Shown piece by piece: positions 24,514-55,035 of a stretch of 64,000 bases of DNA. Both the position numbers and the translations under genes were made by a program. Below the pieces are notes generated by a model, which saw nothing but the letters and a program-made list of their open reading frames with translations, was not told the DNA's origin and ran no database searches. The stretch's first letter is position 1. Every line of letters begins with the position of its first letter. Source of the DNA: Promethearchaeota archaeon (GTDB lineage: Archaea; Asgardarchaeota; Lokiarchaeia; Sigyniarchaeales; SOKP01); assembly GCA_048939995.1 (NCBI GenBank), contig JBHLOY010000013.1:1-64000 (forward strand), in the 5' to 3' direction.

Positions 24514-26589
24514 ATGTTGAAATCATATCATTATTTTGTCCTAATATTACCACTATTACTTATCAGCTTGATTTTTATTAATGTTTTTATTGTTTGGTTT
24601 CCTACTAAGGAACCAATCAAGATTATCGATAACATATACAATAATGAAAATATAGAATTGATTAACTCATCAGTACAGATAAAAAATGAAACAATTAATA
24701 CAGATGAGACATGGAGTGGAAATATACTTATAACTCGAAGTATCACGATATCTAAGGGAGCTGCACTAAGTATTTTGCCCGGGACGATTATCAGATTTAA
24801 ACATTATAGAGGATATAAATTTCCAGATGCAAGGTTAAGCCTTTTTGTTGCAGGGACTATAAAAGCCTTAGGAACATCAGATCAGCAGATTTGGTTTACT
24901 TCTGATGCTGAACCACCAATAAATGGGGATTGGGATGGAATCTATATGAATGGTACTACAGATTCTATATTTAATTATACAATTGTGGAATATGGACTCG
25001 TAGGTATTGTCCAGTTCCACTCTGAATCTATAGTTGCGAATTCAATAGTGAGATGGGTTAATACAGAAGGACTTTATGCAGAGTATTCCAATGTGGAGTA
25101 TGTGAATAATACTTTATATGGAAATGGGTATCACGAAATTGCTTTAGAACAATTTAATAACGCTACTGTTAGAAGGAATATATTTAAAAATGGAATTGTT
25201 GCTTTTCACTCAGAAAATTCAGAAGCATATCTTAAACGAAATTACTTTACTAATTATAGTGGAGACATTGTATCGATTGCCGCTCATTCAAATGCAACTT
25301 TAGAAGAAAACATTTTTGATCCATCTTTAACGAGTCCTCAAGTCACAGTGACCCCAAATGCCAATGTTACTTTAATTAATAATGATAATGGAACTATGAC
25401 TTTACCAATTCCAGTATTTGATTATCTGGACATGCAAAACTATACATTGGGTTATATACCAGGGGATCCAGAAGATCAATACCCATATGTTTATGACACT
25501 ATAGATGAGACGAGAAAGGTTATAAAAAGAGTAGGATTAGGTCTAAGTTTTGGCTGGGCTTTAGAATTTGCTATGGGTTACCTTTGGCGATTTGACTTTT
25601 GGAATGCTCAGATTGGGAGTGCATTAAATTTTATAAGAATGGAACCAGATACGGGGAACTATATTGAAATCAAAAATGATGTCATTGAAAATGCGCGAGG
25701 CTTAGCTTGGGATGGAGAATATTTTTTCGCATACGATCATAGTCAACTCAAGATTTTCAAATTTAATATCTCTGGGAACGAAATCTTAATTAATGATTTT
25801 TTCGATCTACCCAAAAAAGAAGAAGGTGGCGTACAAGGATTGACTTCTGATGGAGAATTTCTCTATATTCCAAGTAGAGGGGGAGCGCTAGTAAGAAAAG
25901 TAAATAAGTCTGGAGCAATTATTGACGAGATTAACATTACTGGAGAAGGTGTTAGTGGGGGGCTAGTATGGACAGGGACACATTTTTGGGGCGTTACGGG
26001 GGGAGGAAATTTAACCAAATATACACATGATTGGCAAATCGTTGGGCAATTTTATCCGGTAGCCGATGGGACATGGGCAATTGCTTGGGATAGAGATTAT
26101 TTATGGGCCCTTCAGAGAACGTGTGAAAGCTGGGTTGATGCAAAAATGTTCCAAATTAAGCCATTAATATCAACTAAAACTGATTATTTAATAATAAAAG
26201 ATGACAGCCCTCATACAATAACAGTTAAATCTAATTCCTCTGATTATGGACTTCGGTTTAATGAATCCCGGGATGAAATTAGCTTTGAAATTTACGGTAG
26301 AGCTGGGAGCAAAGGAAAATGTGATGTTTCTATTCCCAAAGCATTAGTACTTACACCATACGCGGTATCTATTGATGGAATTCCAATCGACTTTAGTATA
26401 AGCACCAAGGAAACACAAATTGTAGTTCATTTCGAATATCAGCATAGTTATCATGAAATTAAAATTCACTTGGAAATTGAATCAACAACACCTACTATTC
26501 CGTGGATTCACATTCTTCCTTATTCTATGATCTCTATTGCGATATTTAATGTTTGGGTGTATTATAAGAGGAAAAAAAGTTTTGAATGA
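24514..26589 (+). CDS. Secreted/membrane-anchored protein: right-handed beta-helix, beta-propeller, C-terminal TM
   Basis: IWFTSD...GDWDGI; pectin-lyase-like repeats; GLAWDG/GLTSDG/IAWD blades; TM plus KRKK tail. Confidence 0.75.
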   Translation: MLKSYHYFVLILPLLLISLIFINVFIVWFPTKEPIKIIDNIYNNENIELINSSVQIKNETINTDETWSGNILITRSITISKGAALSILPGTIIRFKHYRGYKFPDARLSLFVAGTIKALGTSDQQIWFTSDAEPPINGDWDGIYMNGTTDSIFNYTIVEYGLVGIVQFHSESIVANSIVRWVNTEGLYAEYSNVEYVNNTLYGNGYHEIALEQFNNATVRRNIFKNGIVAFHSENSEAYLKRNYFTNYSGDIVSIAAHSNATLEENIFDPSLTSPQVTVTPNANVTLINNDNGTMTLPIPVFDYLDMQNYTLGYIPGDPEDQYPYVYDTIDETRKVIKRVGLGLSFGWALEFAMGYLWRFDFWNAQIGSALNFIRMEPDTGNYIEIKNDVIENARGLAWDGEYFFAYDHSQLKIFKFNISGNEILINDFFDLPKKEEGGVQGLTSDGEFLYIPSRGGALVRKVNKSGAIIDEINITGEGVSGGLVWTGTHFWGVTGGGNLTKYTHDWQIVGQFYPVADGTWAIAWDRDYLWALQRTCESWVDAKMFQIKPLISTKTDYLIIKDDSPHTITVKSNSSDYGLRFNESRDEISFEIYGRAGSKGKCDVSIPKALVLTPYAVSIDGIPIDFSISTKETQIVVHFEYQHSYHEIKIHLEIESTTPTIPWIHILPYSMISIAIFNVWVYYKRKKSFE

Positions 26590-26690
26590 AAATTGTTATA
26601 AATTTTTTTTTTTTTAAAATAGATACTAGTTCCAATCCACATATATATTAAAAGCAGTGGATTCTTTTATCATCAATTTTTTTTTTTATT

Positions 26691-27491
26691 ATGACAGAAA
26701 GAATGCCCATCCTTTTCATAGGGCATGGTTCACCTATGAATATCATCTCCGATAATGCATTTACACGCAGTCTGAAAACTTTAGGGATAAGTCTACCTAA
26801 ACCAAAAGCTATTCTAGTAATCTCTGCTCATTGGTTGACTTCTGGGACTAAAATATTATGTAATAAACATCCAGAAACGATACACGATTTTTATGGGTTT
26901 CCAGAAAAGCTTTATCAGCTCCGTTATTCAAGTCTAGGACAACCAGAATTAGCAGGTAAGATCAGCCAAAAGTTTGATAATTATAATGTTAAGTGTGACT
27001 ATAATTGGGGATATGATCATGCTTCTTGGGCAATTTTAAAACATATGTATCCCGAAGCAGACATCCCTATGATAGAGCTAAGCTTAGATTATGACTTTAA
27101 TAGTTGGCGAATCAAACCAATTGAATACCATTATCAATTAGCTCAAAATTTAGCATTTTTGCGGAAGGAAGGGGTTCTGATCATAGGAAGTGGAAATATT
27201 GTACATAACCTCAGGATGATTGATTTTAATGTTAATGCCCCAGTTATGGATTGGGCAAAAGAACTCGATGCACATGTTAAAGAGAAAATAATAAATAAAG
27301 ATCATAATAATCTGATTCATATTGAAAAATTAGGAGTAAATGCGCGATTAGGAATTCCCACTTGGGATCATTATCTTCCTATGATTTATATTTTGGGGCT
27401 TCAGGAGGAGGAGGACCCAATAAAATTTGTGCATGAAGGATTTCAACACGGTTCAATCTCGATGCGATGTTTCCAAATCGGTATTGAATGA
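26691..27491 (+). CDS. ygiD: 4,5-DOPA extradiol dioxygenase (LigB family)
   Basis: MPILFIGHGSPMN, ISAHW, TIHDFYGFP, DHA.W, GSGNIVHNL, PT.DHYLP. Confidence 0.9.
   Translation: MTERMPILFIGHGSPMNIISDNAFTRSLKTLGISLPKPKAILVISAHWLTSGTKILCNKHPETIHDFYGFPEKLYQLRYSSLGQPELAGKISQKFDNYNVKCDYNWGYDHASWAILKHMYPEADIPMIELSLDYDFNSWRIKPIEYHYQLAQNLAFLRKEGVLIIGSGNIVHNLRMIDFNVNAPVMDWAKELDAHVKEKIINKDHNNLIHIEKLGVNARLGIPTWDHYLPMIYILGLQEEEDPIKFVHEGFQHGSISMRCFQIGIE
27336..27491 (+). repeat. Left copy of 156-bp direct repeat (3' end of ygiD)
   Basis: Aligns without gaps to 34419-34574. Confidence 0.85.
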
Positions 27492-27527
27492 TGTCTTAAA
27501 AAAATAGTTTCCATTAATCACATACTT

Positions 27528-28088
27528 TTATTTTAATTTTGTTGGCCTTCTTTTCCAGAGTTTAATCGATTCGAGAATAAATACTCCTGTTCCAAAAATT
27601 AAGAAAATTAAAAAAAGAAAACCTCCTGGATGCGTGATAAAATCATCACCATAGACGCTTGCTAAAAAAAGATATGCTATAAAACCAAGAATATAAAAAA
27701 TTAAGTAAAGCGAAAATCGAGGGACCATAATATATCCAACTCGGATGTAAAATCCCAACATTCCTTTTTTTGATTCCTCACAGGGATAATACTTTCCATT
27801 TATTTCGTTTTTTTTTATGATTCCAGCTCTAGATAACTTTTTTATTTGATATGAAACGGTTCCGGGAGAAGAAAAGTTCAATGATTTCTGAATTTCTCTA
27901 ACTCCCGCATGTTTATGAGTTAGTATATACCAATAGATTTGAAGTGCTTTACCTCTTAATACTTTTCCTTTATTAAAATCGGGATTTATTTCAATATTTG
28001 ATTTTAACTCATAGATTTCATTTCGGAACGCAGACTCAGACGATATTTCAAATTTTTCCTCCTTACTTTCAGCTTCTTCAGAAGTCAA
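27528..28088 (-). CDS. Membrane-tethered winged-HTH regulator (LexA-like DNA-binding domain plus 2 TM)
   Basis: GVREIQKSLNFSSPGTVSYQIKKL..AGII followed by two hydrophobic helices; TTG start overlaps upstream TGA stop (TTGA). Confidence 0.8.
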   Translation of the reverse strand: MTSEEAESKEEKFEISSESAFRNEIYELKSNIEINPDFNKGKVLRGKALQIYWYILTHKHAGVREIQKSLNFSSPGTVSYQIKKLSRAGIIKKNEINGKYYPCEESKKGMLGFYIRVGYIMVPRFSLYLIFYILGFIAYLFLASVYGDDFITHPGGFLFLIFLIFGTGVFILESIKLWKRRPTKLK

Positions 28089-30205
28089 GTTAAATCAAAC
28101 TCTTTTTTAACATTTTTCATTATTTTTCGATTTTTAATAATAGTTAAACTAGCTAAGACTATTATTGGCCCAATAATAATAAGAATGATTGGTAAATAAA
28201 CAAAGGTTAATAAAATTAAGTTTTTCTGACCTAGACGAAGAATCGCATTTCCTTTTAGTTTAACTTCGGAAAAACGGAGATTAGGATTTGAAGAGACAAC
28301 TTCTAACTTATTCCAAGACTGAGTTGTATAGTTCCATTGAAACACTTCTTGTTCTTCGAGGGGATTAGAATAATCTATTTCATCTAAATCGTAATAACAA
28401 CGTAATAGATATTGAGATTTAGATCTATTAACTTGGAGTTCATAAAATTTACCTGTTTCTTGTTGATTAGAGATGAGATTACTTAAATCATGGGTCATTG
28501 TCATATTCCCTTCAAAATGTTGGCTTTCCAAGGCTATAACTCCATCTGTAAAGGGTAAATAAATTGGATCAGAACTAACTTCTATTTTTTCCATTTTATA
28601 GATATCTATATCTTGTAATTGAACCGTATAATTAAAAATAATTCGTCCCATCCTATTCATCTGAACAAATGGAGTTACCTCCTTTGCTCTTAGATATATC
28701 CCTTTTGTTTCCTGTATTAAAAGAAGAGGAGCATCTTCCTGAGCGAGCCGTTGCACCTGAAAGTAATAATATTCACGTTCTTGCCGAATGGGCGTTTGTT
28801 GACCTAAAGATGTAAATAAATCAGCCTCAGAATTTGAATACCTCCCATAATTAATATCCCCTGAAGTATGAAGAAGTCTTCTGGATAGGCTAGGATCTGT
28901 TATAGGAACCCATCCAACAACAAAAAGATCAAAATTACCTGCTTTGAGGTTTTGTCTCGTACCATTGATAGTTGTGCAATGGATACCCACAAGATTGAGA
29001 TCTGCTTTAATCGCGCTTACTTTCTCATAGGAACGTTCAAATCCTACGAGCTCGATATCAAAGCGATATCCATCTCCAAGTCTGGGATATCCCGAACTAT
29101 CTAATATAGTATTTGCTAGATCAACATTATATGGATATCCCTGAATTGATTTATCATTGTATAAATCTCCAGAATAAATAACACTACGAAGTGGGTGCAC
29201 TCCCTTGTTTAGATTTTCAAAATAGTAATTGGTAAACATTTGCTTATTCACAGCATAATTAATCGCTAACCTTACATTTTGGTCATTTAGAATCGGGTGA
29301 AGATGATTAAAATAACCATATTGAATTCCATCAATAGCCAAAGATTCTTCCCAGTAAGTATCATTTTCGGGTAATGGATTAATACCAATTGTAGTGAACT
29401 CTCCTTCATGATTCTCAACAGCAGCTTGAAAATTTCCCATGGATCCATATTTGATATATTGAATTTCTTCAAAAGGAGGAACCCCACGGAAATATTGGTC
29501 GTTTCTGATAAATTTTTGAAATGTTGAATTACTCGAAATCTTATCTAAATAATATGGCCCAGTTCCAATTGGTTCAGTAATGTTCGGACCTCCACTAAAA
29601 CTGTTTGGGGAATAAATCCCACACAATGCAGCCTCTTGATATATAAAGGGAGCATAGGATTGGTTGAAGTTAATAGACACTTTATATTCGTCTAAAATTT
29701 CAATAGATTCTAATGGCATCTGACTAAAATCTATAAATGGATCAGCTACATATGCAGGATGGGTGGGATCAATAAATCGATCATAAGTGAATTTAACTGA
29801 AGTTGCATTAAATTTTGTACCATCACTGAAATTGACATCATCTCGGAGTGTAAAAATCCAGTTCCTACTATTATTTGTGACCACCCATTGTTTAGCTAAT
29901 GCTGGTATAAGTTCTCCTGTATTAAATGAATATTCAACCAAAGGATCGAAAATTATGGTAGCTAAAAATGAAAATTCACGAATCATATCATAATTAATCC
30001 CAAAATCTAATTGTGGTGGCGAAATGTACCTTAGTACTTGAGGGGGGTCGAATTTCGCTGATGATTTAATCTCCTGAGAATTTATTTGTACAGAATCACT
30101 TTCTACAATTTTTTCAATTGACATATTTATTGGAATTATCTGTATTGTAATTAGTACAATAATACAAACTAAAGCAATACGGTTATATTTCATACTATTA
30201 GACAC
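28085..30205 (-). CDS. Family-5 (peptide/nickel-type) solute-binding protein with C-terminal TM anchor; no ABC permease adjacent
   Basis: IFDPLV, PALAKQW, FTLRDDVNFSDGT.FNA..VKFT, PIGTGPY, VRLAINYAVN, NYGRYSN; extra C-terminal domain plus TM. Confidence 0.88.
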   Translation of the reverse strand: MSNSMKYNRIALVCIIVLITIQIIPINMSIEKIVESDSVQINSQEIKSSAKFDPPQVLRYISPPQLDFGINYDMIREFSFLATIIFDPLVEYSFNTGELIPALAKQWVVTNNSRNWIFTLRDDVNFSDGTKFNATSVKFTYDRFIDPTHPAYVADPFIDFSQMPLESIEILDEYKVSINFNQSYAPFIYQEAALCGIYSPNSFSGGPNITEPIGTGPYYLDKISSNSTFQKFIRNDQYFRGVPPFEEIQYIKYGSMGNFQAAVENHEGEFTTIGINPLPENDTYWEESLAIDGIQYGYFNHLHPILNDQNVRLAINYAVNKQMFTNYYFENLNKGVHPLRSVIYSGDLYNDKSIQGYPYNVDLANTILDSSGYPRLGDGYRFDIELVGFERSYEKVSAIKADLNLVGIHCTTINGTRQNLKAGNFDLFVVGWVPITDPSLSRRLLHTSGDINYGRYSNSEADLFTSLGQQTPIRQEREYYYFQVQRLAQEDAPLLLIQETKGIYLRAKEVTPFVQMNRMGRIIFNYTVQLQDIDIYKMEKIEVSSDPIYLPFTDGVIALESQHFEGNMTMTHDLSNLISNQQETGKFYELQVNRSKSQYLLRCYYDLDEIDYSNPLEEQEVFQWNYTTQSWNKLEVVSSNPNLRFSEVKLKGNAILRLGQKNLILLTFVYLPIILIIIGPIIVLASLTIIKNRKIMKNVKKEFDLT

Positions 30206-30282
30206 TTCTTTTTTTATAATATTTCAATAATTTGCTTTTAATTGTTAAATAGTTCATTTTTTTGCTGTTTTATATAATTATC

Positions 30283-30303
30283 TTTTGAACAATATGTTCA
30301 AAA
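30283..30303. promoter_or_regulatory. Palindromic operator TTTTGAAC-N5-GTTCAAAA (copy 1)
   Basis: TTTTGAAC AATAT GTTCAAAA, 78 bp upstream of the SBP gene and adjacent to a minus-strand TATA (TTATATAAAA, 30278-30269). Confidence 0.7.
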
Positions 30304-30456
30304 TGTTGTACACTTATTTCTTTTATAAGATTATGATCCCTCTTAATAAATTTAGAGAATAAAGGTATGACACAAGGAGATTTTTTTGTGCCAAATCCAT
30401 TTTGAGAGATTTTGTAAATTAAAATAAATTCCATTTTATCACTCCTCATTTGTATT

Positions 30457-33171
30457 TTATTTTGACTTTGATGGCCTAGTTTTCCAAACTTTAATCGATT
30501 CAAAAATAAACACGGCAGTTCCAAAAATCAAGAAAACTAATAGAAGTATACTGCCTGGATTGGTAATGAAGTTATCGCCATATATACTAGCAAAAATTAG
30601 GTACCCTATAAAGCCTAACACATTGATAACTAAGTATAATGAAAATCGAGGTATCATTAGAAAACCAATATGAGTGTAAAACCCTAAAATTCCTTTTTTT
30701 AATTCTTTATTCACGTAATATTTTCCGTCTTTATCGCTTTTTGATATAATTCCAGTTTTTAATAACTTATCTATTTGATAAGATACGGTTCCTGGCGATG
30801 AAAACTTTAATGATTTCTGGATTTCTCGTACTCCGGCACGACTATGAGTCAAAATATACCAATAAACTCGAAGCGTTTTACCTTGTAATACTTTTTCTGG
30901 GCTAACATTAAGAGGCTTAGTTTTAACTTTAGTTAATATCTTTATATGAACGAGTCTCTCTTTAACTTTGGACCTTGGTAGTGTCTTTCTCTTTCCCTTG
31001 GTTAGTTTTTTCCGTTGGACGTACCATTCAATAGATAGAATACCAACAAAAATGAGGGAAACACTTATTAAAATGCCAAATTGTAAAATTAAATAATAAC
31101 CTGGAATTAATGGACCTTCAGTATCGATAGATTCAGGTTTTTCATAATAGTCAGTAATTGTATTGTTAATAAATATGTTCCCAATTACATTGTTATAACA
31201 CGAAAGTTCAAGATATATCCCAATCTCGTTGTTACTTACTATATTTCCTAAAACTAAATTGGATTTACTCACATTTAAACCAATACCTATCCAAAAATTA
31301 TTATCTACGGTATTCAAATATATAGTATTATTATTGCTATCTTGTAAAGCTATACCAGCAAGAACATTATAGTTTGCAATGTTTCTAGTAATATTGTTAT
31401 TTTTGCTGTTAATTAAGCCTATTCCAACAATATCATTGTTATTTACGATGTTTCCCGATATTATATTATTATTGCTGTCTTGTAAGACTGCTCCAGCCAG
31501 ACCATTACAGTTTGCATAATTCTCAGAAATCAGATTTCCACTACTATTTTCAACGAGTATTATACCAACTAGATTATTATCTACGATATTTTTTGTAATG
31601 TTATTATAATGACTATTTAATACAAATATCCCATTACTGTTGTTGTTGATAATGTTTCCCATTATAATGTTATTAATATGATTATAAAAGCCTATTTGAA
31701 TCCCATTAGTATTATTATTTACAGTGTTACCAGAAATAATGCAATTATCTCCGCGCAGGAGTATCCCATTCTCACTATTATTTACCATATTTCCCGAAAC
31801 AATATTATTATCGCCTAGGATTCGAATACCTTCTCCATAAAAGTTATGAACACCATTTGAGGAAACTTTGTTTTTCAGGATGTTATTCTTATTCCCTTTA
31901 ATTTCGATGCCATTATATTCGTTATATTTTACCGTATTTTCTGTGATAATAGTTTCATTTCCATCAAATATACTTATTCCAACCCCATCATTATTAAAGG
32001 TATTTCCAGAGAGCATGATGTTATCGCAATAAAATAATTTTATCCCATTGTTAAAATTGTAATTTGCGGTGCTTCCTGAAATACTATTGTTATTACTCTC
32101 AATTAAGCTTATTCCGTTATAACCATTACTTGCGTTAATTCCTAAAATAGTGTTGTTATTAGAGAAATATAATGCAACTCCCGTATTGGCATAGGAAACA
32201 TCCAAATTTGAGATATTTGAATTATTACAATTAACTAAAATAACTTGACCAGCATTAGTAAAATTGTTTGAACTTAGACTTTTTTCATTCTTATAATAGT
32301 ATAAAGGTTTGCCATTAACTAAATTTGAATTGTCTATATCGTGGGAATCTAATTCGTCAATTGATCCTCTTACCTCTAACCCATTATTATTTAAGATATT
32401 TTTGGACACTGTATAATTTACACCTTCTCTGGCAATAATTCCGCCCCAGCGATTATTTATGACAAAATTTCCTGAAATTGTTGTACTTTCGCTCTGTTCT
32501 AATAAAATTCCATTAAGATTATTACTTAGAAAGTTTCCAGTAAGATTATTGTTCCCACCACCATTTAATGATATTCCATAACCGTTATCAGTTAATGAGT
32601 TCCCCTCAATATTGTTTCTATTACTATTAAACATGATATTTATCCCTATCTCGTTTTTATTTACGTCGTTTCCTAAGATACTGCTATCATTACAATTTTC
32701 CAAGAATATCCCATTATAATTAAGTGAAAGATTGTTATTAATTAATTGAGCATTACTAACATTTGACAATACAATTGCCCCTCCCCAACCATATTCATAA
32801 CGATCAACAGCTAATGAGTTATAAATGGTACAATTTTCAATTTTAAAAAAAAATCTTGAATTCTCAATCAAGATACCGTAGACCATTCCGTCGACCTCAA
32901 TTATAAGATCTTCTATAATATAAGGATCGGTAAAATTCCCATAACCTGTGACTATTTTCGCAATCTTCGTTTCAGACCAATTATTATTGATGTGAATAAT
33001 TCTTGATACTTTTGAGATTTTCAAAGTTTTGCCATCTAAGTCAATATCATCAAGATTTTCTAAATTTTTCTTGTTATCTCCGTAATTATTTATAAGGTGG
33101 ATTTTTGTTGAAAATACAAAAATAAATCCAAATATGGCTATTAAATTTATTATTTTTATGATTCTTTTCAT
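30457..33171 (-). CDS. Receptor-like fusion: NosD/right-handed beta-helix ectodomain, IPGY-TM, LexA-like wHTH, 2 TM
   Basis: Signal peptide; GNFTDPYIIEDL; many ~22-aa N..GI.L..S.NN.I.GN repeats; LIPGY-TM-RKK; C-terminal 145 aa are 68% identical (98/145, hand count) to 27528..27965. Confidence 0.85.
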   Translation of the reverse strand: MKRIIKIINLIAIFGFIFVFSTKIHLINNYGDNKKNLENLDDIDLDGKTLKISKVSRIIHINNNWSETKIAKIVTGYGNFTDPYIIEDLIIEVDGMVYGILIENSRFFFKIENCTIYNSLAVDRYEYGWGGAIVLSNVSNAQLINNNLSLNYNGIFLENCNDSSILGNDVNKNEIGINIMFNSNRNNIEGNSLTDNGYGISLNGGGNNNLTGNFLSNNLNGILLEQSESTTISGNFVINNRWGGIIAREGVNYTVSKNILNNNGLEVRGSIDELDSHDIDNSNLVNGKPLYYYKNEKSLSSNNFTNAGQVILVNCNNSNISNLDVSYANTGVALYFSNNNTILGINASNGYNGISLIESNNNSISGSTANYNFNNGIKLFYCDNIMLSGNTFNNDGVGISIFDGNETIITENTVKYNEYNGIEIKGNKNNILKNKVSSNGVHNFYGEGIRILGDNNIVSGNMVNNSENGILLRGDNCIISGNTVNNNTNGIQIGFYNHINNIIMGNIINNNSNGIFVLNSHYNNITKNIVDNNLVGIILVENSSGNLISENYANCNGLAGAVLQDSNNNIISGNIVNNNDIVGIGLINSKNNNITRNIANYNVLAGIALQDSNNNTIYLNTVDNNFWIGIGLNVSKSNLVLGNIVSNNEIGIYLELSCYNNVIGNIFINNTITDYYEKPESIDTEGPLIPGYYLILQFGILISVSLIFVGILSIEWYVQRKKLTKGKRKTLPRSKVKERLVHIKILTKVKTKPLNVSPEKVLQGKTLRVYWYILTHSRAGVREIQKSLKFSSPGTVSYQIDKLLKTGIISKSDKDGKYYVNKELKKGILGFYTHIGFLMIPRFSLYLVINVLGFIGYLIFASIYGDNFITNPGSILLLVFLIFGTAVFIFESIKVWKTRPSKSK

Positions 33172-33431
33172 TTTACTTTCTCTAAATATTATCCATGTAG
33201 GGTAATTGTTAAGTTAAGTAAAGTGGTACTGCTATATTCTAAATAATTCGGTACTTTTCTATTTTATAAAGTTTTACTAAGTTTTTAGTATAATAAATGT
33301 TGTTATTATAAAACTGTAATTGGTTTCAGTTTGAATCTAATTCATATTATTAAGTTGAGAATTTAAGCTAATTCCTTTGATATAAAAAAAAATGTAAATA
33401 ATATTTATTTTTCATTATGTGCAAGTATCGT

Positions 33432-34148
33432 TTACGTATTTGATTTTTTTAACTTTTTACCGATTAGGAATATCACAATCGAAAGTGTCCCAACTAGAAT
33501 TAATATACTATATCCTGGAATTCCTGATATTAGTGGTCCAGTTAGGGCATTAGTACTAACAAAAATTGCTTTCTTCCAAAATCCGCTATATTGAAATGTA
33601 CCATTTAAGAAAATTCCTGTGCTTTTTTCATACCAAACTGCGCTTCCATTAGAATCCTCTAATTTCCATACTTCTATTTGGCCATAACCAGGCATAGTCC
33701 AATTTAATTCGGCAGTAACATTAAAATTTTGGTCTCCGCCTGAATAAATAAATATTTGAACAATATCATTAAGTGAAATATTAGTTAAAATCCTAGTCCA
33801 TGTATGAGACCCAGCAACGGGACTCGGCAGGTCTGTATTTGATACAATTCTTGAGCTTAATTCCTCATCCCAAGAACCTTGTTCTGCTGGGGTTCCTAAA
33901 GTTCCCTCTCCTAAGAACCATATAACATGATAAACATCATCTGAAACTCTGCTGAATTCGATGTTAGCTTCTTGTGTTTCAAATATGTGAAAAGAATCAG
34001 AGTGGATATAATTAACGTACATCCCATCAAAAACTCCTGTTGTACTAGAATAACCCAATGCTATAAAATGAGAAAAGAATACAAATGAAATTATCGACAC
34101 AAGAATATACTTCATGATTTTCTGCCTATATTTGCCTTTTTCTTTCAT
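33432..34148 (-). CDS. Secreted surface protein with IPGY-TM-basic (Loki-CTERM-type) sorting tail
   Basis: Signal peptide; WYEKSTGIFLNGT; ends GIPGYSILILVGTLSIVIFLIGKKLKKSNT. Confidence 0.8.
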   Translation of the reverse strand: MKEKGKYRQKIMKYILVSIISFVFFSHFIALGYSSTTGVFDGMYVNYIHSDSFHIFETQEANIEFSRVSDDVYHVIWFLGEGTLGTPAEQGSWDEELSSRIVSNTDLPSPVAGSHTWTRILTNISLNDIVQIFIYSGGDQNFNVTAELNWTMPGYGQIEVWKLEDSNGSAVWYEKSTGIFLNGTFQYSGFWKKAIFVSTNALTGPLISGIPGYSILILVGTLSIVIFLIGKKLKKSNT

Positions 34149-34232
34149 ATTTTTTACCTACTTTACTCAATTTAGTGGTTTTTTTATAAATTTCTTAAAT
34201 ATTTGTTTTGATTTCTATTTCTTAAATCTATT

Positions 34233-34253
34233 TTTTGAACGCCCCGTTCAAAA
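34233..34253. promoter_or_regulatory. Palindromic operator TTTTGAAC-N5-GTTCAAAA (copy 2)
   Basis: TTTTGAAC GCCCC GTTCAAAA, 85 bp upstream of 34148. Confidence 0.7.
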
Positions 34254-34279
34254 TTCTGTACATTCGCATAACATAGTTT

Positions 34280-34300
34280 TAAGTTTCAAATTGAAACTTA
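34280..34300. repeat. Perfect inverted repeat TAAGTTTCAA-A-TTGAAACTTA
   Basis: 10-bp arms; a related TTTCAA-N9-TTGAAA follows at 34307-34327. Confidence 0.5.
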
Positions 34301-34418
34301 TTACTGTTTCAAAGTATAGTCTTGAAAGTTATCCCAATTTAATAAAAAGGTATTAACTTAAAAAAAAGAAAAACTACAATGTAATTATTTTATTCTTTAT
34401 ATTTCTTTACTCTTATGA

Positions 34419-34574
34419 GTAAATGCATATTTAGGAATTCCTAACGGGGATCACTATCTTCCTATGATTTATATTCTGGCGCTTCAAGATGAGAAAGACG
34501 CGATAAAATTTATGTATGAAGGCTTTCAACATGGTTCTATTTCAATGAGATGCTTCCAAATTATCATTGAATAA
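34419..34574 (+). pseudogene. Displaced 3' fragment of ygiD (right copy of direct repeat)
   Basis: Translates VNAYLGIPNGDHYLPMIYILALQDEKDAIKFMYEGFQHGSISMRCFQIIIE*, 41/51 identical to the C-terminus of 26691..27491; preceded by in-frame TGA where the intact gene has GGA. Confidence 0.88.
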
Positions 34575-35053: not shown

Positions 35054-35342
35054 TTTAAAACACTGCTTTTAATACTTATACTTATTGTAATTTAATTTAT
35101 ATAATTAACCCTTGCAATAGAACTTTTTCAGTAATTCTTTTTAACTATTTAATTGAGCTTTGCTCATGGATTTTCAATGAGAGTGAGTATTAATGAAAGA
35201 GACTAATGAACCTAAAAAATTGAAACAATAAAAGATTTACTCAAATTTATATAATCATTTGGTTATAATAATATCAAACAACCAATTAATCCGTAATTAT
35301 AATTTTTCTGATCTACAATCATTTTCTTTTGATTTATACATC

Positions 35343-36890
35343 ATGTCAATAAATAGAAATAAATTATTAATGGAATTATTCGCGAATTTCATACAGGCAA
35401 ATAAGGAAGTTGAAGCTATTATAGTTTCCGATAAAGATGGATTAATAATTTCCGGAGAACGAAGAAAAGATGTGGATATAGAGTTAGTTTCGATAATGAC
35501 TGCGGTGGTTAACCCTGTTATTGAGCGATTTCGTGATGAATTTTCCTATAAGAAATTTGGGACCGCAAGTTTTGATACTGAAAATAATCGTCTTTTGTTC
35601 ATCACTATAACAGAAAATGTAACATTAACTTTAGTTATTGAAAATCTTGGCTCGATTGAGAAAATAGCCCCCTATGCGTATTTTCTTGCTGAAAAAGTGG
35701 CACAGATTATAGTTGCAACTAATGAAGATCTAATTGAGGTATCAATTCCTAATTTTGATTATAAAACTGAAGGATATTATGGAAGTGATGCTCAACTTTT
35801 TCAAATTGGTTTAGAACCAGGTGGAGAATATAGATTTAAATTTATAGTTATAGGTGACCATGAAGTTGGTAAGACTTCAATTCTACGTAGATTTGTAGAA
35901 GGGAGATTCTTAGTAGATTATCGTACTACTATTGGATTGAACGTTTTGACTCATAATTTCGAATTTTTTGGCAACAAAATTAACGTATTTCTCTGGGATA
36001 TAGGAGCTCAACAATATTTTAAAAGATACCGTAAAGTTTATTACAAAGGTGCACAAGCTGCTTTTATCATTTTTGATTTAACAAACAAGGATTCTTTTTA
36101 TAACGTAATGAATTGGTTTAATGAATTGAATGAGTTTAAGGAACATGAAATCTCAATAGTAGTCGTTGGAAATAAAAAAGATTTAGAACAGCAAAGAGAA
36201 GTTGATTATGAAGAGGCAACTACTTTAGCTGAAATGTTATCTGAAAAATATAACAAGAAAATTTCTTATATTGAAACCAGTGCTTTAACAGGAGAGAATA
36301 TTGAAGAAGCATTTGGAATTGTATCCTATCATTTTATAATGCTAAGCAAAGAATTTGAGGAAAAAAATTTAAGAGAAAAGATTTTTACTGAAATTAATTC
36401 GGTATTAGATACACGAAATTCACTTTCAATTGCATTTATATCAAAAAATTTCCAAAAGAATCCTATTATAATGCTTTTAAAAGAGATAGAACCTTTAGGA
36501 TTGTCTTTAAAAATGGAAAAAAAAGATAAAGTGATCTATCAATTTGCAAATGGATTAACCTTGGAAAGTTACAATTTCGATTCAATGAAAGTTTCTGATT
36601 CTGATGGAGCTTTTGTAATTTTTGATGGGAAGGATAGAGATTCCATTGACCCGAAATGGAATAGTATTATATTACAAATTTTAAAAACAATCAAGGATAA
36701 CACTGTGATTTTAATCGGTATAATTACTAAAAAAGATGTAAATTGGTCAAAAATGATGAGTGAGTTTAACTTTTATACAAAGTTAGAAGCAAAGCAAATC
36801 TCGTATTTTGTATTTAAAATTGACTCCGATTCTAAAATAGAATTATATGAACACATAAATACTATGTTCAATACTATTAGGAATCTTTAA
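35343..36890 (+). CDS. Roadblock/LAMTOR-like domain, Rab-like GTPase, degenerate second G-domain
   Basis: VEAIIVSDKDGLIIS (roadblock); GDHEVGKT, TTIG, WDIGAQ, NKKD, ETSAL; C-terminal SDGAFVIFD...VILIG strand pattern; start likely ATG 35343 (ORF track 35259). Confidence 0.85.
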   Translation: MSINRNKLLMELFANFIQANKEVEAIIVSDKDGLIISGERRKDVDIELVSIMTAVVNPVIERFRDEFSYKKFGTASFDTENNRLLFITITENVTLTLVIENLGSIEKIAPYAYFLAEKVAQIIVATNEDLIEVSIPNFDYKTEGYYGSDAQLFQIGLEPGGEYRFKFIVIGDHEVGKTSILRRFVEGRFLVDYRTTIGLNVLTHNFEFFGNKINVFLWDIGAQQYFKRYRKVYYKGAQAAFIIFDLTNKDSFYNVMNWFNELNEFKEHEISIVVVGNKKDLEQQREVDYEEATTLAEMLSEKYNKKISYIETSALTGENIEEAFGIVSYHFIMLSKEFEEKNLREKIFTEINSVLDTRNSLSIAFISKNFQKNPIIMLLKEIEPLGLSLKMEKKDKVIYQFANGLTLESYNFDSMKVSDSDGAFVIFDGKDRDSIDPKWNSIILQILKTIKDNTVILIGIITKKDVNWSKMMSEFNFYTKLEAKQISYFVFKIDSDSKIELYEHINTMFNTIRNL

Positions 36891-36924: not shown

Positions 36925-39900
36925 TTATCTAGAGAAATATTCCTTTAACTCATGCTTAACTGAACCTTTTCCTTTGAGATCATAGAGTAATTCATCAGTA
37001 CTATGAATAATTACCTCACTTAATTCGTGAGTCTCACGTAAGATATCAAATTGTCCTTTATAATACAGATCGATAATCTCATTAAATGCCTCCTCATATA
37101 CTCCTTTCAATCCTATTGATTGAATAAATGCCTTATAATGATTGATTCTAACATTTTTCATAGGACCTTGAAATGAAAAAGACTCATTATTTTCTAGCAA
37201 TTTAATAACAACAATGATTAAGAGCGTGTTTGCATTCTGAAAATCTTTACTTGATTTGATAATATCTTCATTAGATGTATCCTCAGTGTAAATTATTTGA
37301 ATCGATCTAATTCTGTCCCTAATTGATGGATCTATATTTAGGAACGAAACTTGATCATCAAAAAGAATTAATCCATGGATTTTATTTTGAATATCATCAT
37401 AGATTTGAGGATTGGAATAATATTTAATACCAATTTCATCAAAATACTTCGTCAATAAATCGTTAATGCAGGAATAAACAAGTTCTACTTCTCCCATAAC
37501 TAGTGGTGTTCCTGTTATTTCTAATTTTCGGTCTTGTTCATGTTTAGATTCTTGATTGTCAACATACATTTTAAGATTTTCAGAGACTATCTTACTTTCA
37601 TTATATAGTTCAAGTGATTTTGAATAATCTCCAGATATTGCAGCTTTTTTGGATTCAATCTCATATTGATCCTTCAAATAGTTAAGACCTTTAATTGCGA
37701 TATCGATTTGTTTTTGACGGTAAAAATCTGCATTTTGAGAGTTTCCAAGAATCTCTTCAATAATAATAATTTCACCTGCAAATCCTGCTGCTTTGACATA
37801 ATCTTTCTCTTCTGTTAATTTGTTAACATAAGCAATTACTTTCTCTCTTCTGGCAAGTAGATCTGCTTCAGTCTTATCTTTGAGCGTTTCATAATCTAAT
37901 AAACTTAATTCTTCATAAATTTTCAACTTTGCCTTAGTTACTGGCTGCTTTTCTGATATTTGAATACCTATTTCCTTCTTCTTACTCTTTGATTTTTTTA
38001 GCACTACAATTCCTACTACCCCACCTATAGCTGCTCCTATTACAACAAATATTATCCATAATGGAAATTCAGATGGTTGAGAAGTGGATGTTATAGAAAA
38101 GCTATCTGTTGCGGCAGGACTCTGATGACCTGCACCATCAATTTGATATAAAAAGTAATAATAAATTCCTGGTTGAAGAGATTCCATATACTCATAATAA
38201 TTACCCGTTAAGTTTATTGCAAACACGAATCCAGGGGTAGCTAAAGGATTTGCTTCATTATCTATAATTAATCTATACTTAATTATCCCAGAAGGATCGG
38301 AACCATCTTGCCATTCAAATATTAAAGTACCACTTACAGCTCCTTGGGGAGCCTGTATTAACGACGGTGCTGGAGGAGCAATTGTATCTTTATATAAAAC
38401 TATTAGCACAGGGTCGCTCAAATGATTAAGAGTATCATTTGCATAGATATAAACATAAAATCTTCCTTCTGGTAAACTATTCCAAATTAAATTATTGAAT
38501 GGTTGGTTAATATTATTTCCCAACAAGATGTTAGTTGTGTTTACTTGATACCAAATTAGATCTAGATTAGCATCTGTAGCTAAAACATTGATAATAGGTG
38601 CTGCTCTGCAGTAAGTGTTATTCAACGGGAAATTTAATGCAATTGAAGGTGCTATTGTATCTTTTATTATCGTTATCTCATCAAATCCAATAACTCCTAA
38701 AGTATTATTTATATAAAAACTAATCGTAATAGTACCATCTGATTTAGCGTCCCATGCTAATTGATTTATAGTCCCAGTTAGCCCTGTAAATGTATAATTT
38801 ACTATTCCATTATCTAAAGTATACCAACTTGTATCTAGATTGCTTCCACTTATATTAACAGCATAATTCGGCGCTGTATTACCATACACACCGTCTGAAA
38901 TAGGAGTATTAATCATTATCATGGGAAAGAAGATATCTTTATAAACAATAACTTCTGCTGTTCCTAAATTGCCTACTGTATCATTAGCATAAAATTTGAT
39001 CATTATTGTTCCATTACCAACTTGCTCCCAAACACTCTGAGCGATTGCTCCTGTCCATGTGTAATTATTAGTAACAATAGTTCCATTGTCCAATTGATAC
39101 CATTCATTATCTAAATTAGCGTCATTAATATTAATAGTAATGCTTGGAGGTGAAATCCCAAACAAGTCATAATTATTTGGTTCTGTAATAATTATAGTAG
39201 GAGTAATTGAATCTCTATTGATTACCACACTCGCAGCATCCCAGTTACCAGCAGAATCATTTACATAAAATAGTATCGTAATAGAACCTTGACCTGCAGT
39301 ATTCCATGCCGTAGAATCGATCGTTCCGCTCAATGCTCCTGTGAAGTTATTTAGACCTCCATCAAGTGTGTACCAAATCCTATCTCTATTCGATTCAGTG
39401 ATAGAAAGAGTATAACTTGGAGGAAGGCTACTGAACCATGCTCCAGGTAATGGTGAATCGATACTATCTATTGAAGGATTAACGGTATCTCTATAAATTG
39501 CTACGCTCGCAGTATCCCAGTTACCCGCAGAATCATTTACATAAAATATAATTGTAATGGAACCTTGGCCTGCATTATTCCATGCTAAAGAGTTGATTGT
39601 TCCGCTTAATGCTCCGGTATAGTTATTTAAGCCTCCATCAAGCGTATACCAAATCCTATCTCTATTCGATTCAGTGATAGAAAGACTATAACTTGGAGGG
39701 AGGCTACTGAACCATGCTCCAGATAATGGTGAATTGATACTATCTATTGAAGGATTAATGGTATCTCTATAAATTGCTACGCTTGCAGTATCCCAGTTAC
39801 CCGCAGAATCATTTACATAAAATATAATTGTAATGGAACCTTGGCCTGCATTATTCCATGCTAAAGAGTTGATCGTTCCGCTTAATGCTCCGGTATAGTT

Positions 39901-42900
39901 ATTTACCCCTCCATCAAGCGTATACCAAATCCTATCTCTATTCGATTCAGTGATAGAAAGACTATAGCTTGGAGGGAGACTACTGAACCATGCTCCAGAT
40001 AATGGTGAATCGATACTATCTATTGAAGGATTGATAGTATCTTTATAAATTTGTACGGTATCAGAGGTTTCAATGCCAAAATTGTTGTTTAAATAAAATG
40101 TAAGAGTAATAGAACCTTGACCAGCATTATCCCATGCTGTGGAATCAATTACACCAAACCAAGAATTAGATTGATTAGCATTACTAGTAATAGTATAATT
40201 GTTAAGTCCATTATCAAGAGTATACCATATAGAATCACGATCGTTCCCGCTCACATAAACATCATAATCTGGAATAGATCCAAACCATTCGGCAGTACTA
40301 GGTGAATTAATAGAAATTGATAAATCTGAAGTTTTTGTTACTCCTACACTTGCAGAATCCCAATTACCCAAGGAATCATTTACAAAAAATGTAATCGTGA
40401 CAGCACCTAAACCAGCATTGCCCCATGCGATATAATCAATTGTTCCACTCGTTGCTCCCGTGTAGTTGTTTAAACCATCATTGAGGGTATACCAAATCTC
40501 ATCTAAATTCGCTTCGGTAATGGAAAGACTATAACTTGGTGGGGTTGAATGGTTTGAGCCAGATGAAGGTGAATCGATACTAACTGAAGGTTTGATAATA
40601 TCTTTTCTAACTATTACTTCTTCATAATTAATATTACCTAATGTATCATTTGCGTAGAATCGAATTATTACTGTTCCATTTGGTCTTCCGTTCCACGTAG
40701 TCTGATCGAGACTCCCTATTGCAGCGACAGGAGTGGAATTAGTGGTTCCACCATCTAAGCTATACCAAATAGAATCTAAATTGGGATCTGTAACTGTAAG
40801 ATTATAATTAGGCGCCATCGATCCAAATAACTCATTCGGGTTAGGAGAGTTAATGTTTATATCTGGTGCTGTGGTATCTTCACCTACTTGATATTCAGCT
40901 CCAATTGAGTAAAAACTGCTTGGGTCATATTGATTGTTGTATTCAGTAGCAATCCAATCTACTGAACGAGCAATATTAGATAATCGAACTTCATCCATGA
41001 TACCTTCTAAGTTATCAGGACTTCTAGCAATAGTTAGAGAATCTATTATTGTTTCAATCATTTCTGAAAAAGTGGCCGTATTTGGATCTTGAGTCCCATT
41101 AATAAAAATTTTCATTGTATTGCCAACTCTAACACATGTGATACTAACCCATTTATTAAGCGAAATCAATGTCTGACTCTTTAAACTAGTTGAACCAATC
41201 CCATTTAATCTAAAATAAATAGCTCTATCCCTATAAATAAAAGAGGAATAAGCATCAGTATAAATACCTTTGGTTACTGTATCAGGATCATTACTTACAT
41301 CATATGCCATTACCCAATATTGGATAGTTAAATTCTCGGTCAAATCTAATGAAACATCATTTCCACAATCAACATAATCATCGATTCCGTCAAGTTCTAG
41401 ACTCCCATCAAGTCTTCCAGGAATTTGATCTCCAGGATCCATCGTTCCATACGAAGTACCATCATTATTGTTGGTTGTGGAATCCTTTATTGGATTTGTA
41501 GGATCTTCAGATAAATGCCATACTCCAACATAATTAGTATCCCATACTCCATCGGGGTTTTGAATTGAATACATGGTTGAATTTCCATAATACATATAGA
41601 TTTTAGTGTCTACCATGGGTGAAAGAGAAGGAATGCGTACCCAAGATACTAAAAATGCATGTGTTGTATTATGATCTCGATTAAATAATTCAATTTCATG
41701 ATCAAGCCAATTCTTACCATCATAAAAAGCTATATCGTTACCATTAGATTGAACATCAGTATGTAAGTCCATATCATAAAGAGATATTAAAATAGGAAAA
41801 TTAGTGAGATTACTCGATCCAGAGATTTTAGTATGATCAATTATTATTTCTTTATAATATTTAAAGCTATTCAAAGAAGGTCGAAGTAATTCTTCAGTGC
41901 TTAGTGTAAGTGTTGGTTCTGGCTCTACAAATATCCTTAAGTAGATATCATCCACAAATAGCGTGTTAAATTCATTAGGTGATGCCCAATAAATACCTGT
42001 GGAGAATTTATCGGTTGGTTCAGAACCTAAATTAATCGAAGTGTTATGAATCTCTAAGTTACCATCTAACCATAGCTTAGCCAATCCATAACTACTGGAA
42101 ACGTTAACTTGTACATCCAATGTATGCCAGGTACCCTTAGATATAGTGTTGGTCTCTAAATAACCATAGGCTTCTCCTGCAACAGCATTCCACATATATA
42201 AAGTCATATCATCATTTATAGTAACACTAATCAAATTTTGCCATACTGTGGCTGTGTCAACAAACTGTATAACTGTTACCCTGTCTGTAGTACTAAAACT
42301 AGGATCAAGATAAATATGTACGTGGGCATAAAGGCTTGCTTCATCTGGAAAATCCTCAAAAACCATAGCCTGAGGAGTAGTAACATTGTCCATATCACAC
42401 TTTGCAGCATAATTGCCTGTGTGAACCTGATCAGTTGATGCTATGATTGAATCCCCTACAGATCCAGTACTATTTCCATCCCATCCGTTCAAATTACCGC
42501 TTTCGAAACCATCATAAAAAAAGAATATATTACTTGGGTCAACCAACGGGGAATTAGCTAATTTATTGCCGTAGTATAGATAATAATTATTATCAAATGA
42601 CAAGGCTTGTATTGGTTTCTGGGTTTTAAACCATATTTTAGTTGATTCATTGTTCCATGAGGAGTCAAGATCCAACATTCTATCCAGAACATTCCACATA
42701 GTGCCATTCCAATATACTAATCGGATATCATCACCATCTGCTTGACTTTTACCCTTAATGACCAGATCAGCGTGATCGAAAGTCAAAGAAACTGTATAGC
42801 CAGAAGGTATATCAGAACTACCAGTTGTCACAGTAACTTTTCTACGATATTTCCAGTTTTGATTAAACCAAGAACCGTATGTTTCTTCAGATTCAAGTGT

Positions 42901-54174: not shown

Positions 54175-54191
54175 TTGAACATAGAGTTCAA
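54175..54191. promoter_or_regulatory. Palindromic operator TTGAAC-N5-GTTCAA (copy 3)
   Basis: TTGAAC ATAGA GTTCAA, 68 bp upstream of 54259 and just upstream of TATA-like TTTTTAAAAA (54201). Confidence 0.6.
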
Positions 54192-54258: not shown

Positions 54259-55035
54259 TTGGAGAGGGAGAATTTGAACAACGAAATTGATAGCTCTATT
54301 TATAGTGAGAATTTTTATCTAAAAAATAAAAAAAAGATATTCAAAGAATTTAATCTATTAATAAAAACTGCAAAAACAGTTCTCTCATCAAAAAATAGTG
54401 AATTAATTCTTGATTCTATTGAAAAAGAGGCTCAAATTGAGTTTGAAAACCTTCTTTCAAGACTTCCTTATGTTGGTGGTAATAGATCACCCTTTACTTC
54501 TTTTATGATCCAATCTGCAGAAACGATCGCACTTTACAAAGCGAGTAAATCACTCAACTTATCTAGGCGAGAAATAGGTGAACTTATTTATGACATAGCT
54601 GAGAATTCTGCTCAATCTATTCCCTCCCTTAAAAAATGGTTATTTAGGAAAGCTGTTTTTTCTAAAAAGATGAAGAACTCTTGGAGAGAGTGGTTAAAGG
54701 AGAGCCAAAAGCGTGAATATCCTGAAAATTGGGTTGGTGATTTTATTGATGGTGAGGGCAAAATGTTTGATTATGGGTTTAACTTTACGGAGTGTGGTTG
54801 GATTAAACTTATAAAGAATGAGGGTGCCGAAGATATTGCTCCATATGCATGTTTATGCGATTTTGCTAGAATGAAAGCAATTGGTGTAGGATTTAAAAGA
54901 ACTAAAACGATTGCAAATGGAGCTGAAATCTGTGACTTTCGATTTGTCAAAAATTTTCCAACTTCTTCTGGTTGGCCACCAGAAGCTCTTGAAGAAAGTA
55001 AAAAACGAACGGACAAAAATGTAGATTCCAGATAA
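54259..55035 (+). CDS. L-2-amino-thiazoline-4-carboxylic acid hydrolase (ATC hydrolase) family protein
   Basis: FTECG, C.CDF, RTKTIANGAEICDFRF. Confidence 0.85.
   Translation: MERENLNNEIDSSIYSENFYLKNKKKIFKEFNLLIKTAKTVLSSKNSELILDSIEKEAQIEFENLLSRLPYVGGNRSPFTSFMIQSAETIALYKASKSLNLSRREIGELIYDIAENSAQSIPSLKKWLFRKAVFSKKMKNSWREWLKESQKREYPENWVGDFIDGEGKMFDYGFNFTECGWIKLIKNEGAEDIAPYACLCDFARMKAIGVGFKRTKTIANGAEICDFRFVKNFPTSSGWPPEALEESKKRTDKNVDSR

Follow-up and report, generated by a model that had tools for sequence, protein, structure and literature searches.

The stretch of DNA analysed here (the window) comprises 64,000 nucleotides of contig JBHLOY010000013.1 from a Promethearchaeota archaeon (Sigyniarchaeales; assembly GCA_048939995.1). 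It carries a cassette in which a predicted membrane-bound transcriptional regulator occurs twice, once as a free-standing gene behind a family-5 solute-binding protein (SBP) and once at the end of a large beta-helix protein (Table 1). An earlier note, made from the sequence alone, had read these genes as a membrane-tethered, LexA-like regulator with interchangeable extracellular sensors. The three open reading frames (ORFs) on which it relied were recovered with the same limits, all on the minus strand, and the identity between the last 145 residues of the 186 and 904 amino acid (aa) proteins was recomputed to the same value, 98 positions, with the DNA 75% identical over 446 nt. No third copy of this module was found in the genome by tblastn. 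Best hits labelled Promethearchaeota and a neighbour with a Loki-CTERM-like tail make Lokiarchaeia the most likely affiliation, NCBI labels of these metagenome-assembled genomes being inconsistent. The TTG start of the regulator overlaps the TGA stop of the SBP, as had been noticed, and the ATG at 30193 may be the true start of the SBP, rather than an upstream start. Transmembrane segments (TMs), assigned from hydropathy, number two at the C-terminus of each copy of the module, one at either end of the SBP and four in the fusion.

Table 1. Features of the cassette, in positions of the window
Feature	Position	Strand	Basis or remark
3' end of ligB/ygiD-type dioxygenase gene; left copy of bracketing repeat	27330..27489	+	
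Stand-alone regulator, 186 aa, TTG start	27528..28088	-	ORF call, Pfam, AlphaFold2 (AF2) model, fold search
TTGA in which the SBP stop and the regulator start overlap (translational coupling)	28085..28088	-	Sequence, related loci
Family-5 SBP, 706 aa, putative receptor subunit	28085..30205	-	N-terminal signal/TM; SBP_bac_5 at 28889-29914
Partner anchor of SBP: TFxYLP-like motif, one TM, Asn692, basic tail	28088..28225	-	Profile/alignment
Juxtamembrane beta-sandwich of SBP, ~residues 531-661	28223..28615	-	Predicted ZU5/GAIN-B/FIIND-like fold
Operator 1: full GTWC-N8-GWAC at 30296-30311 and half site 5 nt on	30287..30311	-	Motif scan
Fused protein, 904 aa: signal/TM, NosD-type right-handed beta-helix, TM 694-712, regulator module at 30460-30894	30457..33171	-	
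Surface protein, 238 aa, Loki-CTERM-like tail	33432..34148	-	Likely regulated target
Operator 2: full site at 34246-34261 and half site, upstream of TATA-like box of 238-aa gene	34237..34261	-	
Orphan 3' fragment of ligB/ygiD-type gene; right copy of bracketing repeat	34413..34572	+	

A metagenome contig of 4995 nt from an independent study covers positions 26628-31621 with four substitutions and one intergenic insertion, and it includes both the overlap and the joint at which the module is fused behind the beta-helix ectodomain, with the frames unchanged. This contig is intact, and similar N-termini are seen in about 60 homologues that exist as separate proteins of ~187 aa; the split pair and the fusion are therefore not assembly artefacts. 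The possibility that the 186-aa regulator is a frameshifted SBP-regulator fusion was ruled out by the same two observations and by a stop codon that closes its frame two codons upstream of the TTG.

The regulator has a flexible N-terminus of ~40 aa, a winged helix-turn-helix (wHTH) domain at residues ~42-104 and TMs at 127-145 and 157-175, with ~20 residues between the wHTH and the first TM in the AF2 model (predicted local confidence, pLDDT, 70-95 over the module). The outer loop between the TMs comprises ~11 residues and the basic C-terminus lies inside. Hydropathy and the basic residues flanking the TMs place the wHTH of both proteins in the cytoplasm, as the earlier note had expected, and an extracellular wHTH is not predicted. 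Sequence and model together show a wHTH that a C-terminal helical hairpin ties to the membrane; the outer loop is so short that the regulator has no ectodomain of its own.

Kinship with LexA had been suggested from the recognition helix. The best Pfam match of the module is LexA_DNA_bind (PF01726), a weak match over that helix which scores 20.4 bits against a cut-off of 23.7 and lies near those of TrmB and ArsR. The LexA cut-off of TIGR00498 is likewise missed (15.8 vs 110.95), and TrmB matches 31 of 35 family members vs 19 for LexA_DNA_bind. In the fold search the module is a wHTH in which ArsR/MarR-type proteins rank first (Z~10-11) and generic matches (ArsR, MarR, PadR) tie at Z 9-11; LexA is absent from the top 50 matches, which does not exclude kinship. 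Foldseek with the model returned no match at E<0.001, and a sequence search of solved structures returned nothing below E 0.5. The C-terminal S24 autopeptidase domain of LexA is absent as noted before, with two TMs in its place. Because LexA_DNA_bind stays below its cut-off and TrmB matches more members, we assign the module to an unnamed archaeal transmembrane regulator family with a generic winged-helix fold, not to LexA; the suggested likeness is no stronger than that to several other wHTH families.

A profile of the module, searched across 301 Asgard genomes, matched 188 of them with up to 13 matches per genome (counts over loci and genomes, here and below, include related members that are not independent of one another). 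A library clustered at 50% identity holds 608 matching representatives, the best 150 of which are nearly all 110-300 aa long. Clusters with the regulator architecture in a protein atlas come from Bathyarchaeia, Nitrososphaerota, Thermoproteota and Thorarchaeia; the presence of the family in the first two shows that it is not confined to Asgard archaea.

Around 90 loci with regulator homologues were gathered and their adjoining genes classified. A surface protein gene stands directly ahead of the regulator in 37 of these, at a distance of -4 to +6 nt in 32 and of exactly -4 nt in 21. The ectodomains of these partners are family-5 SBPs (29), NosD beta-helices (4), SBBP beta-propellers (3) and a family-1 SBP (1). 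The predicted linkage of sensor-like genes to the regulator is therefore borne out, and since four unrelated folds sit before the same regulator with one conserved anchor, the sensors have been exchanged, more widely than the two types in the window indicate. The coupled loci belong to one clade, found in the family of the source genome and in that of Ca. Hodarchaeum mangrovi (Hodarchaeales). In a tree of 145 columns, rooted by uncoupled relatives and drawn with no formal topology test, coupled and fused forms fall into a single clade with a derived form bearing four TMs (4-TM; support 100/99), SBP-coupled rows being basal and the propeller-coupled, beta-helix-coupled, 4-TM and fused forms arising within the family of the source genome.

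The four unrelated ectodomain types share an anchor that consists of a TFxYLP-like motif, one TM, an Asn at the cytoplasmic edge and a short basic helical tail. This Asn is invariant in 37 of 37 partners at 20-68% identity. When a profile is built exclusively from the tails of SBPs, it recognises each of the 8 non-SBP partners at E 1e-6 to 1e-11, the next ORF of the loci following at E 2e-3, and in the source genome it matches only the window's SBP. Across the 301 genomes, among the matches listed per genome, 39 of 39 at E<1e-10 directly precede a regulator, including six that had not been used for training, and no regulator was found behind the weaker matches examined. The anchor of a sister SBP (L180) is generic, and no regulator gene follows it. 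This conservation of the anchor across folds, and its confinement to genes ahead of the regulator, is our main reason for regarding the partner as not just another target. A 1:1 complex prediction of regulator module and anchor peptide (paired alignments, 35 rows) scored 0.08 vs a mark of 0.32 and was not used either way.

The window's SBP matches SBP_bac_5 at E=1e-53 (183 vs a cut-off of 32.4 bits). Its best solved-structure matches, peptide- and nickel-binding proteins, reach only E~1e-21, so no ligand call was made, and the peptide and polysaccharide ligands that the earlier note proposed for SBP and beta-helix are conjectural. Directly before the anchor lies a juxtamembrane domain of ~130 residues (model pLDDT 85), which is missing from the beta-helix and propeller partners. 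Its model resembles FIIND, ZU5 and GAIN domains at Z 7.4-8.6, with a root-mean-square deviation of 3.2-3.7 over 106-124 residues, and Foldseek places the same families on top at E>0.03, which is not significant; the ZU5/GAIN/FIIND-like identity is thus a lead only. As in MAIN/GAIN and ZU5/FIIND proteins, a predicted beta-sandwich precedes the membrane anchor of a surface protein. An HxS/T motif before the last strand has been defined for MAIN/GAIN domains (10.64898/2026.05.12.724683); this self-cleavage motif is absent in all 28 aligned juxtamembrane domains. The MAIN proteins described so far are unlinked to transmembrane signalling (10.64898/2026.05.12.724683), whereas the window's SBP is coupled to a regulator and lacks HxS/T. 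Two sister SBPs (L181:1945-4299 and L180:1-1251) have the same juxtamembrane domain with different tails; in L181 the reading frame leaves the contig within an extended cytoplasmic portion, possibly a further output domain joined to the SBP.

Upstream of the coupled operons a conserved motif was found, GTWC-N8-GWAC with an AA..TT core, which occurs in 23 of 33 partner promoters vs 0.22 in shuffled sequence and 0-5 of 33 with other spacer lengths. In many promoters another site, full or half, stands 5 nt further on, giving a 21-bp period. Between the end of the Operator 1 array and the TATA box (30270-30277) that serves the SBP-regulator operon there are 9 nt, and in most relatives the array ends within ~30 nt of the TFB-recognition element (BRE) and TATA box. 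A position just upstream of BRE/TATA is usual for archaeal activators, ArnR of Sulfolobus acidocaldarius among them. The motif makes it very likely that a regulator dimer binds GTWC-N8-GWAC, and from the position of the sites the regulator probably acts as an activator. The motif also stands beside uncoupled members in other Asgard groups, and two copies are present both in L191, from Nitrososphaerota, and in L192, a second locus of TACK type. No strict operator lies next to the regulator in 4 of 6 TACK/other loci. Genes bearing the operator encode an N-terminal signal in 37 of 52 cases vs 100 of 472, with related loci not independent.

Both of the best sites genome-wide, at 34246 (best; score 20.8) and 30296 (19.7), lie in the cassette, the next scoring 14.8. 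No strict site was found upstream of the fused gene itself. The predicted local regulon is accordingly small, comprising the SBP-regulator operon and the 238-aa surface protein, and transcription of the latter gene possibly reads on into the fused gene. The 238-aa protein matches no Pfam family, and its Loki-CTERM match (17.5 bits) is below the cut-off of 19.9. A conspicuous palindrome at these promoters, TTGAAC-N5-GTTCAA, was rejected as the operator: it has four copies in the genome, two of them unrelated to the cassette, and covers 17 of 33 promoters vs 23 of 33 for the N8 motif, which, unlike it, also accounts for non-coupled members. It is the junction of tandem GTWC-N8-GWAC sites. A further perfect copy at 54175-54191 is intergenic, upstream of an ATC-hydrolase-family gene (54259-55035), and is probably not the regulator's because the N8 site is absent there. 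GAAC/GTTC-type half sites recall the Gram-positive SOS boxes of LexA; the genome-wide operator scan gave no signs of an SOS regulon.

We favour, at a probability of about 0.55, the reading that the SBP and the 186-aa protein of the window form a receptor/regulator pair which signals through its membrane helices and activates neighbouring surface-protein genes. A regulator dimer would bind GTWC-N8-GWAC, often at two sites 21 bp apart, just upstream of BRE/TATA, and would thereby activate its own operon and surface-protein genes nearby. The co-translated upstream surface protein would be the sensor, with an exchangeable ectodomain for which the family-5 SBP would be ancestral and the beta-helix, beta-propeller and family-1 SBP later. 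Anchor helix and tail would have been kept because they are docked on the regulator, a contact that we infer, and the binding of a ligand outside would alter helix packing and so DNA binding or the recruitment of TFB/TBP inside. For the 904-aa fusion two roles are conceivable: a one-component variant of the system, or the second subunit of a heterodimer at these operators. A broader proposal, which we put forward tentatively and hold for somewhat less probable than the pair itself, is a system of plug-in receptors: any surface domain could be wired to one membrane-bound activator via a 45-residue docking anchor, the operator being conserved from Asgard to TACK archaea, and the ancestral receptor would be a solute-binding plus ZU5/GAIN-like domain, recalling the ectodomains of adhesion GPCRs (G protein-coupled receptors) with signalling straight to DNA.

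Several observations weigh against a receptor/regulator pair. Many family members without an anchored partner (4-TM, DUF3160-linked, Thorarchaeia-type and TACK) keep the operator, so the regulator is not strictly dependent on the anchor, and locus L008 has a member of the coupled clade without a partner. The anchor profile finds no match in the TM of the beta-helix fusion. Conservation of the anchor could be due in part to a shuffling of ectodomains in which the overlapping 3' end is never replaced, and since the operator also governs the partner gene, their linkage by itself might be no more than that of a regulator and its target. Because so many members work without the anchor, the chief rival, which we nevertheless regard as rather unlikely, is a regulator-target cassette, in which the regulator would sense the state of the membrane or envelope by its own hairpin or another protein, the partner being only the first of its targets, with a tail that serves generally to anchor the protein and couple translation and is retained when ectodomains are shuffled. 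The operator in the partner promoter fits this, as does its retention by uncoupled and 4-TM members beside surface genes (DUF3160, DUF2330, PF09826 propeller, DUF4349) and Dpp permease operons. However, a generic anchor needs no invariant Asn and conserved motif across two archaeal classes and would not be confined to genes ahead of a regulator, and the neighbouring target proteins have ordinary Loki-CTERM-type anchors instead.

An anti-activator or proteolytic switch is improbable in our view. Here the partner would silence the regulator, the anchor motif would be a protease or sorting signal, and loss, unfolding or cleavage of the ectodomain, e.g., by force or ligand on the ZU5/GAIN-like domain, would free the regulator. 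Members without a partner are expected if the partner is inhibitory, the domain before the membrane has a predicted ZU5/GAIN/FIIND-like fold, and the motif, TM and basic tail together resemble archaeal sorting signals; against this stand the lack of HxS/T, the beta-helix and propeller partners that do without the domain, and the lack of a recurring protease gene in the loci. It has also to be considered that the SBP is an ordinary transporter receptor for Dpp/Opp permeases encoded elsewhere, the regulator setting its amount. Such use in trans with distant Dpp permeases is possible, counts against a dedicated receptor and would be compatible with the pair, but as an explanation we find it very improbable. 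The source genome has 13 family-5 SBP genes and 11 Dpp-type permease genes, mostly apart, and in L052, L062 and L064 4-TM members are divergent to Dpp permease operons with an operator between. The SBP of the window, however, is only ~25% identical to the other SBPs of the genome, bears an extra domain and a dedicated anchor, and is swapped elsewhere for folds unable to feed an ABC permease. The earlier note had argued for a receptor from the lack of an adjoining permease or ATPase, and indeed there is none adjacent to the cassette and no Dpp-type permease gene in any of 29 SBP loci, where no cognate permease or ATPase gene is linked; this is weak evidence because 11 of the 12 other family-5 SBP genes also lie >20 kb from a Dpp-type permease, and orphan SBPs are thus common in this genome. 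Ten family-5 SBP genes without a nearby Dpp permease gene are found on contigs C17 (217000-285000) and C6 (105000-108500), and such dispersed SBP expansions appear normal in this genome.

The fused protein matches NosD and Beta_helix at E~1e-51 and 1e-45, and its TM 694-712 begins with IPGY, a Loki-CTERM-like motif. Since it uses a different TM, it is not a fused version of the split pair. That fused and 4-TM forms are a regulator plus anchor was ruled out, their extra TMs being unlike the anchor profile (best E 0.1, search space 1000). Only 2 long-frame matches were seen among the 150 genome matches listed, and the beta-helix fusion is known from six records altogether; the one-component, ToxR/CadC-like layout that had been proposed is thus rare, the two-protein pair being typical. 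In relatives L008, L042 and L044 the corresponding position is taken by a beta-helix protein that is not fused and ends in a CTERM-type tail. The fusion is best read as a late event in which a regulator copy, arisen by duplication, became joined to an adjoining target gene.

Other variants of the regulator were observed. The 4-TM form (229-263 aa) has two extra N-terminal TMs and no coupled partner (L041, L045, L046, L048, L049, L052:18056-18826, L053, L056, L058, L059, L062, L064); in several the operator provides autoregulation and the gene is divergent to a Dpp permease operon or to the gene of a ~170-aa membrane protein, and in half of the 4-TM forms the conserved Glu of the last TM is replaced by Gln. 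Two non-Asgard members, independent of one another, carry additions: a 355-aa protein (L199:5001-6068; P0190) has a ~150-aa N-terminal domain and a TM before the module, and a 284-aa protein (L191:5001-5855; P0134) a C-terminal extension with further TMs. Uncoupled members adjoin genes for DUF3160, an unnamed ~240-aa N-anchored protein, DUF4349, the PF09826 propeller or DUF2330 (L080, L082-L084, L087, L091, L113; L081, L085, L086, L088, L090, L108, L117-L119; L191, L192, L195). The operator beside most of them is a first regulatory lead for these surface families, which are uncharacterised.

The cassette is bracketed by a 160-bp direct repeat of the ligB/ygiD 3' end (81% identity), which we grade as an insertion or recombination scar. 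The block contains no integrase, and at ligB in relatives other neighbours were found but no clean empty site; a low-depth contig that joins 27391 to 34507 with 32 foreign letters is too weak for use. Homologous cassettes lie beside thiC/thiD in L001/L040, L006-L008 and L042-L044. A functional link to thiamine genes was rejected: the thi genes of the source genome are contiguous on contig C38 without the cassette, so the thi neighbourhood is an insertion site, not functional evidence. The distribution of the cassette is patchy within the genus, and its parts move together.

Little is known of how uncultured archaea, Asgard archaea among them, sense the outside without many transmembrane kinases. 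To our knowledge, ArnR and ArnR1 of Sulfolobus acidocaldarius are the only archaeal membrane-bound regulators studied biochemically. They share with the present regulator an N-terminal HTH and two C-terminal TMs and are activators on two inverted-repeat boxes in promoters of surface-structure genes (PMC6396743). ArnR has HAMP and cytoplasmic sensor domains and the box TCGAC-N5-GTCGA (PMC6396743), whereas our regulator has neither HAMP nor sensor domain, a different box and a coupled anchored partner, and no sequence link is shown. The nearest functional likeness is to VtrA/VtrC and ToxR/ToxS, kinase-free pairs with adjacent, often overlapping genes for a membrane-tethered HTH factor and a single-pass partner whose outer domain binds a ligand (Kinch et al. 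2022, PMC9214523). In the 32 closely spaced loci a transmembrane transcription regulator (TTR) and an anchored partner are likewise encoded side by side and co-translated. In these enteric bacteria the periplasmic domain of the regulator and the lipocalin-like partner form an obligate heterodimer (PMC9214523). The bacterial regulator has one TM and a periplasmic domain of the VtrA/ToxR fold and is encoded first, while in the archaeal pair the sensor comes first, the regulator has two TMs and no outer domain, and the partners (SBP_bac_5, SBP_bac_1, NosD, SBBP) share only the anchor. By analogy we call the pair co-component-like, as it would work like co-component systems yet lacks their defining regulator ectodomain, lipocalin partner and gene order. 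The TTR class, which includes ToxR and CadC and 1,384 archaeal proteins (Demey et al. 2023, PMC10269533), is defined by a predicted DNA-binding domain and at least one TM, both of which the regulator has; that study makes no mention of LexA-type, Asgard, Loki, Bathy or solute-binding partners. Only the 904-aa fusion is one-component, and unlike ToxR/CadC it has an N-terminal ectodomain and a wHTH between TMs. No description of the regulator family, the anchor or the motif was found in the literature covered, which excludes subscription journals.

A widespread unnamed regulator family gains a predicted operator, a predicted regulon (proteins of the surface and of uptake) and a candidate partner for signal input, in which one residue is invariant. 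A small regulator encoded behind surface proteins of changing fold but constant anchor, beside a conserved palindrome, suggests that signals may pass from the cell surface to the genes without a kinase, in a manner not described before. If the anchor docks on the regulator, this would be a natural plug-in design for transmembrane signalling and would extend the co-component idea from enteric bacteria to archaea in a different architecture.

Other proteins of note are encoded nearby in the window. Adjoining the cassette, and without an operator, is a gene for a 691-aa surface protein with a beta-helix, a propeller-like middle and a C-terminal TM (24514-26589). On the other side lie a 543-aa fusion of a Roadblock-like domain and a Ras-family GTPase with a further C-terminal domain (35259-36890) and two giant paralogous surface proteins of 2356 and 2434 aa, whose genes face each other (36925-43995 and 44436-51740). 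The paralogues are 86% identical over 4.1 kb and have internal repeats; in the first, the TM is followed by a long cytoplasmic tail.

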